Shown here: positions 11,743-12,527 of the stretch, one piece after another
Position numbering within the stretch: position 1 is the first letter of the stretch
How the letters are laid out: each line of letters opens with the position of its first letter
Origin: Candidatus Omnitrophota bacterium
Lineage (GTDB): Bacteria > Omnitrophota > Gorgyraeia > Gygaellales > Profunditerraquicolaceae
Direction of reading: 5' to 3'
Length of the DNA: 64,000 nt
Assembly: GCA_003598025.1 (NCBI GenBank)
Contig: QZKH01000002.1
Coordinates: forward strand, 74,133 to 138,132
Position numbers and translations under genes: made by a program
Notes under the pieces: generated by a model
Told to the model about the DNA's origin: nothing
What the model saw: the letters and a program-made list of their open reading frames with translations, nothing else
Databases searched by the model: none

Positions 11743-11825
11743 TGCCGAGAGAGGGAGTTGAACCCTCACGAGGTTGCCCTCACCAGTTTTTGAGACTGGC
11801 GTGTATGCCATTCCACCACCTCGGC
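11743..11825 (-). tRNA. tRNA-Leu (anticodon CAA)
   Basis: Manual fold of the reverse complement: acceptor GCCGAGG/TCTCGGC, D-stem GTG/CAC, anticodon stem CCAGT/ACTGG with loop CTCAAAA (CAA), long variable arm TGAGGGCAACCTCGT, T-arm GAGGG-TTCAACT-CCCTC, discriminator A. 83 nt. CCA not encoded. Confidence 0.8.
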
Positions 11826-11947
11826 ATAAGTAGATTTGTTTTGAGGTAAGAATATTTACCAGGAAATGCTAGCTACGGCATTTGCTGATTTGCCTTACTT
11901 TTAGCTACAGCAAATCAATCCTGGGGCCTTTTAGCCCGAAGGATTTG

Positions 11948-12265
11948 GACCGTTTTACGCTCGTTTAGTGCCACTTCAAATTTTCCTTGTCGGAAAATAG
12001 TTATGTGGTGGCGCCGCACTCGCTGCCTCACTTGTCGCTCGGCTACGCTCGTTGCGGCATCCACCAATTTTTTCCTTACCGGAAAATTAAAATCCAAGGC
12101 ACTGAACTCGCTACGGTCCTTGTCGGACCGTTTTACGCTCGTTTAGTGCCACTTCAAATTTTCCTTGTCGGAAAATTAAAATCCAAGGCACTGAACTCAC
12201 TACGGTCCTTGTCGGACCGTTTTACGCTCGTTTAGTGCCACTTCAAATTTTCCTTGTCGGAAAAT
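11948..12265. repeat. Tandem duplication of an 89-bp unit: full copies at 12081-12169 and 12170-12258, a partial copy at 11948-11999, and a short partial copy at 12259-12265
   Basis: The two full units differ by one substitution (G/A at 12110 vs 12199). The partial copy GGACCGTTTTACGCTCGTTTAGTGCCACTTCAAATTTTCCTTGTCGGAAAAT is identical to the unit core. Confidence 0.85.
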
Positions 12266-12274
12266 TTGAAGTGG
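12238..12274. other. Perfect 14-bp-stem hairpin (CCACTTCAAATTTT-9 nt-AAAATTTGAAGTGG) at the junction of the repeat and the tRNA-Ala 3' end
   Basis: Visible inverted repeat. The 3' arm overlaps the last 3 nt of tRNA-Ala on the opposite strand. Possible transcript-end or processing structure. Confidence 0.5.
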
Positions 12275-12344
12275 AGCTGGAGGGATTTGAACCCTCGACC
12301 TATTGCATGCCATGCAAGCGCTCTCCCAGCTGAGCTACAGCCCC
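12272..12344 (-). tRNA. tRNA-Ala (anticodon GGC)
   Basis: Reverse complement GGGGCTGTAGCTCAGCTGGGAGAGCGCTTGCATGGCATGCAATAGGTCGAGGGTTCAAATCCCTCCAGCTCCA. G3:U70 alanine identity pair, anticodon loop AT-GGC-AT, T-loop TTCAAAT. 73 nt. CCA not encoded. Confidence 0.85.
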
Positions 12345-12508
12345 ATTATTATATTTTGCGTTCGTCCCGAGCTACCTTCTCTTGTCTTATGTACCGAGGA
12401 GCAGCCCCATATTTAAAATTTAAAGCTCAGTATACACTCCCAGTCCCGACGCTCATTTGCATTCGGTCGGGATGCCGACTTCACGTATTTTGTGAACGTC
12501 GGCACTGA

Positions 12509-12527
12509 GCTACAGCCCCATATTGGC
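12509..12527 (-). other. Duplicated 5' fragment of tRNA-Ala (GGGGCTGTAGCTCAG + TGCC) followed by hairpins; possible 5' leader of a tRNA-Ala precursor or a recombination remnant
   Basis: The first 15 nt are identical to the 5' end of the intact tRNA-Ala 165 bp away. Two stem-loops follow at about 12446-12508. A minus-strand sigma70-like promoter lies at 12545-12573. Confidence 0.5.

Follow-up and report, generated by a model that had tools for sequence, protein, structure and literature searches.

A family of two-hairpin cassettes directly downstream of tRNA and tmRNA genes in Omnitrophota, exemplified by a tandem array between tRNA-Ala and tRNA-Leu

What is the repeated sequence that fills the space between two tRNA genes in a genome of the uncultured phylum Omnitrophota, and what does it do there? 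The genes, tRNA-Ala(GGC) and tRNA-Leu(CAA), are both located on the minus strand of a 64,000-nt stretch of contig QZKH01000002.1 from a Candidatus Omnitrophota bacterium (hereafter, the window), and the 444-nt spacer between them contains an 89-bp unit in tandem. ARAGORN and Rfam agree on the two tRNA genes, and TRF places the array at 11947-12266 with a period of 89 and 3.6 copies. An earlier note on this DNA interpreted the locus as the attachment-site scar of a lost integrative element. The analysis described here indicates that the 89-bp repeat very probably belongs to a family of structured cassettes linked to tRNA and transfer-messenger RNA (tmRNA) genes and is not such a scar. For the complete proposal, in which the repeat is a cassette that is co-transcribed as a tRNA 3' trailer or spacer, is copied from locus to locus and undergoes amplification, we estimate a probability of roughly 0.55.

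Each unit of the family is ~85-90 nt long and consists of two hairpins, here termed HP-A and HP-B. HP-A is AU-rich and carries a GACAA loop; after a tRNA, its stem reaches 15-16 bp and takes in the final tRNA nucleotides (71-72, the discriminator and any encoded CCA). HP-B follows HP-A without a linker and forms a 59-nt rod of three stacked helices (P1, a middle helix and P2). In the middle helix, the conserved duplex 5'-GCGAGC-3'/5'-GCGAGC-3' contains tandem G.A pairs, which are predicted to be sheared; a GUA(AA) bulge comes next, and the rod is capped by GACAA. A K-turn was considered for the internal loop and rejected upon inspection, as bulge and G.A pairs lie on the wrong sides for this motif and P2 is not directly preceded by GA. 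In distant species that share the tandem gene arrangement, the same two hairpins occupy the spacer, with stems that are different yet complementary. The fold was evaluated against controls in which the 3' partners were slid by 1-3 columns. In a MAFFT alignment of 23 HP-B copies, 87.4% of the pairs are standard, compared to 24-38% in the slid controls; changes on both sides occur at 14 of the 18 pairs, and the covariation score is 0.535 versus 0.06-0.13. A second alignment of 96 distinct HP-B copies from metagenomes, which was fitted to the model and hence favors the structure, yielded 92.2% paired positions versus 25-44% and a covariation score of 0.448 versus ~0.06. The middle helix itself covaries (ACGAGC/GCGAGU, GUGAGC/GCGAAC, GCGAAC/GUGAGC) around unchanged G.A/A.G pairs. 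The HP-B fold is thus backed by covariation.

A covariance model built on HP-B, termed R1, returned 31 matches in 1.08 Mb of sequence comprising the window and 80 Omnitrophota loci. The latter are the nfo neighborhoods retrieved by a search with the Nfo protein (L001-L080 of the comparison loci, which are designated by L-numbers). All 31 matches are located immediately 3' of tRNA-Ala(GGC) and on its strand, in either orientation of the tRNA gene. Metagenome contigs were scanned with a strict HP-B pattern that gave at least 120 stretches, and totals built on these are therefore lower bounds; the sample is unbiased for position and P2 and biased for the conserved motifs. R1 matches were obtained in 120/120 of the metagenome stretches listed, which brings the family to at least 182 HP-B copies in at least 137 Omnitrophota and metagenome loci. 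The earlier note had named a dispersed genome-wide repeat as an outcome that would speak against its reading. Dispersal is found at the level of the phylum, but the copies form a tRNA/tmRNA-linked family and not a generic genome-wide repeat, and the core motifs of the 89-bp unit were not detected elsewhere in the 64-kb window (0-0.35 matches expected by chance). In Rfam 15, the repeats have no credible match even at E<=10, and only the two tRNAs reach the gathering score. No prior description of the cassette was found in a literature search. A phage or viral origin was rejected, as a pattern scan of IMG/VR gave 28 matches, none of which score with R1 (chance matches).

Variant modules were observed in L004, L059, L060 and L061 and as the second units of L002 and L016. 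They consist of HP-A followed by a plain hairpin (GGAUUCCGUUUUAAUGUAAAACGGAAUC) without HP-B, and their HP-A sometimes carries the loop UUAAUG. As R1 misses these variants, the family is broader than the model.

The position of the cassette is fixed. Among the 182 copies listed, 102 start 24-28 nt past the end of a tRNA or tmRNA gene, always on the strand of that gene, and this gap is exactly the space for HP-A. The genes concerned represent 18 kinds: tRNA-Ala (GGC, UGC and CGC), Cys, Val, four Ser, Asp, Tyr, two Pro, Met, Leu (UAA and UAG), Ile(GAU), and tmRNA. Most of the other copies listed are preceded by a further module, by the end of the contig, or by a tRNA that ARAGORN missed owing to its group I intron; apparent orphan copies turned out to follow tmRNA (RF00023) at a distance of 24-25 nt or intron-split tRNAs, and a few of the copies listed come after other RNAs or simple hairpins. 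Within tRNA clusters, the spacer is taken up entirely by the module, and in eight cases HP-B ends 6-17 nt ahead of the next tRNA. Outside the tRNA-Ala loci, a module located between tRNA-Ser(GCU) and dnaX could be assigned to Omnitrophica by a 100% protein match. The family is thus characterized by a constant location and orientation directly 3' of tRNA and tmRNA genes.

Several observations concern the RNAs that precede the module, or their surroundings. Group I introns (RF00028, 89-101 bits) are present at L125:6579-6903, L131:889-1098, L185:2716-2922, L186:1565-1839 and L188:4749-4949. They are located between tRNA-Thr(UGU) and tRNA-Gly(UCC), where other contigs carry tRNA-Tyr(GUA), and a module is also found 3' of this intron site. 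This suggests an intron-split tRNA, probably tRNA-Tyr, that was missed by ARAGORN and by the Rfam tRNA model. Modules also follow RNAs at L119:1200-1330, L127:310-460(-), L144:11460-11600(-) and L117:1950-2065, and further RNAs in L156 and L168. One group of these RNAs shares ..AAGGCGCGG..AUAGAUU.. and a T-loop-like GGUUCGAAU, while the RNA of the L156/L168 group ends in ..GUAGGGUUCGCCUACCGUCCACGACUACCCGCCA, which resembles an acceptor end with G73-CCA. SRP RNA was considered for the RNA preceding the module in L119, L127 and L144 and rejected, as no Rfam match was obtained (L119 scanned). In species that lack the module (L009, L024, L045, L050, L057, L059, L067, L074), a different conserved sequence, TTTTTATTATTGT.TCGCCGATTGATTGTA..CAAATTGAAG..., occupies the first ~150 nt after tRNA-Ala(GGC). 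This may represent the end of an opposite-strand gene or another RNA element.

HP-A connects the cassette to the tRNA itself. In 65 tRNA-adjacent units, hairpins were extracted by their own pairing, so that it is the contrast in length between adjacent and internal copies that serves as evidence. Next to a tRNA, HP-A exhibits 14-16 contiguous pairs in 58/65 units and a 5-nt loop, which is GACAA in 45/65, GAUAA in 5/65 and another variant in the remainder. GACAA is likewise the loop of HP-B in 20 of the 23 copies, a set that was not selected on the loop. The outer edge of HP-A is located at positions -4 to -1 from the discriminator, i.e., 1-4 nt inside the 3' strand of the acceptor stem, in 50/65 units, and this position is the same with an encoded CCA (30 units) or without. 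According to a tally of the hairpin table, the discriminator is paired in 53/65 units. The base facing it changes with the tRNA: U is found opposite A73 in 39/46 cases, C opposite G73 in 11/13, and A opposite U73 in 3/5. Examples of the pairing with the tRNA end are CCACCA/UGGUGG, CCGCCA/UGGCGG and CCGACCA/UGGUCGG. HP-A copies located between two HP-Bs, in contrast, comprise only 2-10 bp (median 5), which indicates that the long helix is kept only beside a tRNA end that is available for pairing. GACAA is also the pentaloop of phage P22 boxB, where it folds in a GNRA-like manner with a looped-out C and is bound by an arginine-rich peptide (PMC12550061). The GACAA loops of the cassette fit the features of this boxB-type pentaloop, and a GNRA-like fold is predicted for them on the basis of that work (PMC12550061).

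The array in the window displays all of these features. The spacer between tRNA-Ala and tRNA-Leu folds with a z-score of -10.2 relative to shuffled sequences. All units are on the minus strand. HP-A of unit 1 (12238-12274) is the hairpin over the 3' end of tRNA-Ala that the earlier note had recognized, though with arms of 14 nt; the arms (12238-12253 and 12259-12274) are 16 nt long and 100% complementary, which gives a perfect 16-bp stem with a 5-nt GACAA loop. Its core reads UUUUCC-GACAA-GGAAAA with AU-rich extensions. The 5' arm begins with C71, C72, the discriminator A73 and C74 of the tRNA (CCAC) and continues beyond them, and these nucleotides pair with the GUGG located just before HP-B. 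HP-B of unit 1 (12183-12242; R1 60.0 bits, E 7e-17) comprises P1 GGCACU/AGUGCC, the middle helix ACGAGC/GUGAGU with tandem G.A, the bulge GUAAA, P2 ACGGUCC/GGACCGU and the loop GACAA. Unit 2 contains a shortened HP-A' (12159-12175; 8 bp and a GACAA loop) and an HP-B (12094-12153; R1 63.7 bits) whose middle helix pairs 5'-ACGAGC-3' with 5'-GCGAGU-3', two Watson-Crick pairs flanking the tandem G.A/A.G on each side. Between 12081-12169 and 12170-12258 there is, as previously noted, a single mismatch (12110 versus 12199). This C/U difference turns the G.U of unit 1 into the G-C of unit 2 and hence retains a base pair of the middle helix of HP-B. In unit 3, HP-A' (12070-12086) is reduced to 6 bp with the loop GGUAA, and HP-B (12006-12064; R1 64.6 bits) is a "type 2" variant with P1 GGUGG-A-UGCCGCA/UGCGGCG-CCACC and a second tandem G.A in P2. 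The stems of this HP-B differ from those of units 1 and 2, its conserved internal nucleotides are the same, and its outer and middle helices are near-identical to those of the final HP-B in the array of L029. Unit 4 (11947-11998) is truncated to HP-A' and the 5' half of HP-B. It is part of an exact 52-nt stretch that is present three times (11947-11998, 12125-12176 and 12214-12265); the partial copy had been described before, displaced by one nucleotide (11948-11999). The remainder of the spacer (11827-11946) is non-repeated and without similarity to any comparison locus.

One mismatch in 89 bp, together with the third exact 52-nt copy, supports the previous view of a recent duplication. The near-identical units and the truncated unit 4 would fit recent unequal recombination or slippage inside the array. 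Comparable arrays of 2-4 units with a period of 84-92 nt, for which the 89 bp of the window are typical, are found behind single tRNAs in many assemblies (e.g., L029, L047, L053, L056, L065, L134, L141, L174, L178, L179, L182, L200 and L216), and the array of L029 also ends with a "type 2" unit. Tandem arrays and differences in the presence or absence of the module are common throughout the family. A coding function of the repeats, as for the Tpr peptide of tyrT, was considered and rejected: the period of 89 is not a multiple of 3, and the members vary by compensatory changes and indels. ORFs over the repeats are short and have TTG starts.

The genomic context suggests how the array would be expressed. 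tRNA-Ala(GGC) (12271-12344, minus strand; ARAGORN and Rfam) is encoded without CCA and ends in ..GCUCC-A-C|UU. Upstream, on the same strand, a sigma-70-type promoter (12545-12573) exhibits the sequence TTGACA-17-TATATT with a TG-extended -10 element and 11/12 consensus matches. No other minus-strand promoter-like site was detected between this promoter and tRNA-Leu, including the 444-nt spacer. tRNA-Leu(CAA) (11742-11826, minus strand; ARAGORN and Rfam) would be the last gene of the transcript, and the R1 search detected no module downstream of it. From this arrangement we infer a single precursor, driven by the promoter at 12573-12545, that comprises a pseudo-tRNA leader, tRNA-Ala, the array and tRNA-Leu. 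As the only promoter-like site lies upstream, tRNA-Leu would probably be expressed only by read-through of the array.

With one promoter for the leader, tRNA-Ala, the array and tRNA-Leu, the array would constitute an internal transcribed spacer of the tRNA precursor. It would be cut out at the 3' end of tRNA-Ala and, by RNase P, at the 5' end of tRNA-Leu. In the precursor, HP-A may sequester the discriminator and CCA in a helix of fixed length and thereby contribute to the maturation or protection of the 3' end, either as a measured helix for an endonuclease or as a barrier to 3' exonucleases. Excised modules might accumulate as by-products or as protein-binding small RNAs. Processing or protection of the 3' end is our best guess for the function. 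We give slightly less than an even chance to the cassette acting at the RNA level in the processing of tRNA 3' ends, as opposed to simply being tolerated. More tentatively still, it may represent an unrecognized class of structured RNA coupled to the tRNA-like acceptor ends of tRNAs and tmRNA, which it would recognize by pairing with the discriminator and CCA; this could be a device for 3' maturation or quality control (a measured helix of 15-16 bp for positioning a nuclease, or even a self-cleaving RNA) or a mobile element that homes by such pairing. For the repeats, the data come close to the fallback idea of the earlier note, which had considered a structural role in a precursor RNA.

The leader upstream of tRNA-Ala contains the fragment from which the integrative-element scenario had been derived. 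The first 15 nt of tRNA-Ala (GGGGCTGTAGCTCAG) do recur once, at 12505-12519 on the minus strand and not at 12513-12527 as first reported, and with 2 nt of the upstream sequence they form an exact 17-mer (12505-12521). In the RNA strand, GGGGCUGUAGCUCAG (tRNA positions 1-15) is followed by a 61-nt insert and then by CUGGGAG (12437-12443, tRNA positions 16-22), after which the similarity decays. With tRNA positions 1-15 and 16-22 split in this manner, the fragment is best read as the start of a broken tRNA-Ala duplicate that holds a small insertion element, i.e., as a scar of DNA turnover and not as an integrase attachment site. Among 56 Omnitrophota loci with tRNA-Ala(GGC), it is found in the window only. 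An additional exact copy of the 15-mer is located at L066:5134-5148, 3 kb from the annotated tRNA-Ala(GGC), and may be an Ala tRNA gene or a fragment. A degenerate copy of the tRNA-Ala 5' end (76%) with a similar A/T-rich upstream flank is present at 12394-12410 on the minus strand, 64 nt before the real gene.

The insert (12444-12504, minus strand), termed 2HP, is a double hairpin that splits the D-loop of the pseudo-tRNA between positions 15 and 16. Its stems are nearly identical (UGCCGAC..GUCGGCA and UCCCGAC..GUCGGGA). Over 59 nt, it is 90% identical to L146:1293-1351 (E 1e-13), within a class-A RNase P RNA gene that carries an insertion of 85 nt in place of the 13 nt expected by the model. 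Sites of 2HP-type elements are L146:1293-1353 (P9 region of RNase P RNA), L027:4334-4395, in the T-loop of a decayed second copy of tRNA-Leu(CAA), and L120:3720-3770, within a heptamer array. The general form, ~60 nt in length, is TCCCGAC-loop-GTCGGGA|TCCCGAC-loop-GTCGGGA, and most of the sites are loops in genes for structured RNAs. None of the sites in the window, L146, L027 and L120 displays a visible target duplication. 2HP has the look of a small mobile or intervening element distinct from the cassette.

The tRNA pair is flanked by nfo, a response regulator gene and leuS. A Pfam scan of ten ORFs (7174-16845) identified RlmN, a GDSL lipase, DUF4900, Nfo, response regulators and LeuRS. The Nfo search retrieved 80 loci, nearly all labeled Candidatus Omnitrophota, at 54-66% identity; besides the protein of the metagenome-assembled genome (MAG) itself (RJP29530.1, 100%), the nearest homologue is 67-69% identical. 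In most of the Omnitrophota loci retrieved, tRNA-Leu(CAA), tRNA-Ala(GGC) and nfo form a syntenic trio. tRNA-Ala is divergent from tRNA-Leu in most of them and in tandem with it in about a dozen of ~50, the window included; in these dozen loci, tRNA-Ala, together with the module if present, is flipped relative to tRNA-Leu and nfo. The tRNA-Ala genes of the window and of L002 are identical except for CCA and occur in opposite arrangements, which suggests that the inversion is recurrent. Intergenic tandem repeats of heptamers (TGAACTA/ATGAACC-type) are located in the window at 8196-8225, 12595-12691, 16840-16937, 18708-18731 and 62305-62347, and heptamer repeats of the CAGATTA and CTGTTCT types are found at L120:3660-3800. 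One block lies between the divergent promoters of tRNA-Ala and nfo, where two blocks form a 19-nt inverted repeat. These repeats resemble the STRR repeats of cyanobacteria.

Which reading of the cassette do these observations favor? Several of them weigh against an RNA-level role. At the orthologous tRNA-Ala(GGC), the module is present in only 14/56 species and hence dispensable at one locus, and in other species without the module an ordinary terminator follows this gene. Identical HP-B (P2) variants are found behind different tRNAs, one of them in 16 copies behind seven tRNA kinds and tmRNA, which points to copying between loci in the manner of a mobile repeat. Mismatches in the stems display no wobble bias (46 G.U versus 43 A.C in 2083 stem cells), which is not the usual outcome of purely RNA-level selection on a single strand. 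In 4/65 HP-A units, the loop is the exact reverse complement (UUGUC or UUAUC); this suggests flipping of the palindrome at the DNA level and indicates that the loop sequence of HP-A is not strictly required. Together with the local amplification into near-identical tandem units in many genomes, these findings keep alive the main rival explanation, a selfish, non-autonomous DNA repeat of the MITE or REP type that homes to the 3' flanks of tRNA and tmRNA genes and is harmlessly removed by tRNA processing. According to this explanation, GCGAGCG/AGCGAGC and GACAA might be recognized by a transposase or recombinase that acts on hairpins of single-stranded DNA, and the complement of the tRNA end might be a means of target recognition or a product of palindrome extension. 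The 3' ends of tRNA and tmRNA genes are classic targets of integrating DNA, and guide sequences take part in target recognition by IS200/IS605 elements. We nevertheless regard a selfish repeat as unlikely. As in REP- or MITE-type repeats, there are many copies at different loci, but these are not found in either orientation at varied intergenic sites: each lies on the strand of the preceding tRNA or tmRNA, and orientation and the distance of 24-28 nt are invariant in 102/102 of the adjacent copies listed. Moreover, the partner of the discriminator follows the local tRNA, a long HP-A is kept only beside the tRNA and has decayed within arrays, and the non-Watson-Crick G.A pairs were never "corrected," as palindrome repair would do. 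No integrase- or transposase-like domain was identified in the ten ORFs scanned around the window copy (7174-16845), with the rest of the window and the other loci being outside the screen.

Three further explanations fit less well. If the modules were small-RNA genes carried on tRNA transcripts, with the tRNA as a processing handle, they might act in trans as a protein platform or sponge, and arrays would raise the dose. The two identical GNRA-like loops per unit and the invariant nucleotides of the internal loop are typical of protein-binding RNAs, an RNase P cut at the next tRNA, 6-17 nt past the end of HP-B in the eight cases mentioned above, would set the 3' end of the module, and the 3'ETS-leuZ sponge of E. 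coli provides a precedent for a functional tRNA spacer. This explanation is quite improbable in our view, as it leaves unexplained why HP-A pairs with the discriminator and reaches 15-16 bp only beside the tRNA, and as no partner protein is known. A sponge for CsrA, suggested by ACAAGGA in the window, was rejected, as CsrA-type recognition expects GGA in a loop, whereas the GGA of the window is located in the stem of HP-A, where other copies carry GCA, AGA, GUA or GGG instead. Misassembly of short reads is highly improbable as the origin of the tandem copies. The window does stem from a MAG (protein RJP29530.1), near-identical 89-bp repeats are difficult for short reads, and the unit number in this MAG is possibly misassembled, a further point against the proposal as a whole. 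However, arrays of 2-4 units with a period of 84-92 nt occur in many independent assemblies, and the units are not all identical, given that unit 3 has diverged and resembles the last unit of L029. The least probable explanation is that of the earlier note, attL/attR-type scars of a lost integrative element, which retains next to no weight. A tRNA fragment is indeed duplicated, a small insertion element resides within it, and, in line with the recombination scars described in that note, the locus is clearly rearranged, with tRNA-Ala varying in orientation among Omnitrophota and the upstream piece being a broken copy of this gene. However, what is duplicated is the tRNA 5' end, located 160 nt upstream and interrupted by the 61-nt double hairpin, and not a 3' end flanking an island. 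The previously reported absence of an integrase holds for the ten ORFs scanned, and in many genomes conserved structured modules of the same family as the 89-bp unit follow tRNA and tmRNA genes of 18 kinds.

What emerges is a conserved, ~90-nt two-hairpin cassette that is flush with the 3' ends of many tRNA and tmRNA genes across the phylum and in which one hairpin would sequester the discriminator and CCA. Maturation of bacterial tRNA 3' ends is thought to rely on generic trailers and a small set of nucleases. If the cassette has a role in RNA processing, a core pathway of this large uncultured phylum would include a new cis element. A selfish cassette would instead be a repeat with an unusual target rule, pairing with the acceptor end, and might explain the frequent rearrangement of tRNA loci in Omnitrophota. 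In either case, R1 could provide annotation for hundreds of spacers that now look "empty" in Omnitrophota MAGs and flag sites of possible repeat miscounts in short-read assemblies.

Several known systems share individual properties with the cassette. 3'ETS-leuZ is a functional transcribed spacer from the glyW-cysT-leuZ transcript of E. coli. Like the cassette, it is located after or between tRNAs in one precursor, is freed by tRNA nucleases and possibly leads an independent life. However, it is a single, short and locus-specific element that pairs with small RNAs, whereas the cassette is a conserved ~90-nt two-hairpin fold that follows tRNA and tmRNA genes of at least 18 kinds, pairs with the 3' end of its own tRNA and forms tandem arrays. 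Downstream of tyrT in E. coli, 178-bp repeats are arranged in tandem. They also start right after the tRNA, carry a piece related to the tRNA 3' end in each repeat and originate from unequal recombination. The tyrT repeats are confined to one locus of one species and contain a direct copy of the tRNA 3' end, whereas the cassette carries the complement of the tRNA end (GUGG/UGGUGG) in a hairpin and belongs to a phylum-wide family supported by covariation. REP/BIME, REPINs, Correia and ERIC elements are miniature palindromic repeats. With these the cassette shares short, multi-copy, imperfect palindromes with subfamilies and tandem clusters that are co-transcribed and apparently copied between loci; unlike them, it is not found in both orientations at many kinds of intergenic sites but in one orientation, flush with the 3' end of tRNA or tmRNA genes, and with an HP-A tailored to the local discriminator. 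Finally, P22 boxB exhibits the same GACAA pentaloop (PMC12550061). There, it caps a 5-bp hairpin that serves as a phage antitermination site adjoining boxA, whereas in the cassette GACAA caps helices of 15-16 bp and 7 bp after tRNA genes, neither boxA nor an N-like protein was noticed, although no search was aimed at them, and four of the 65 HP-A loops are inverted.

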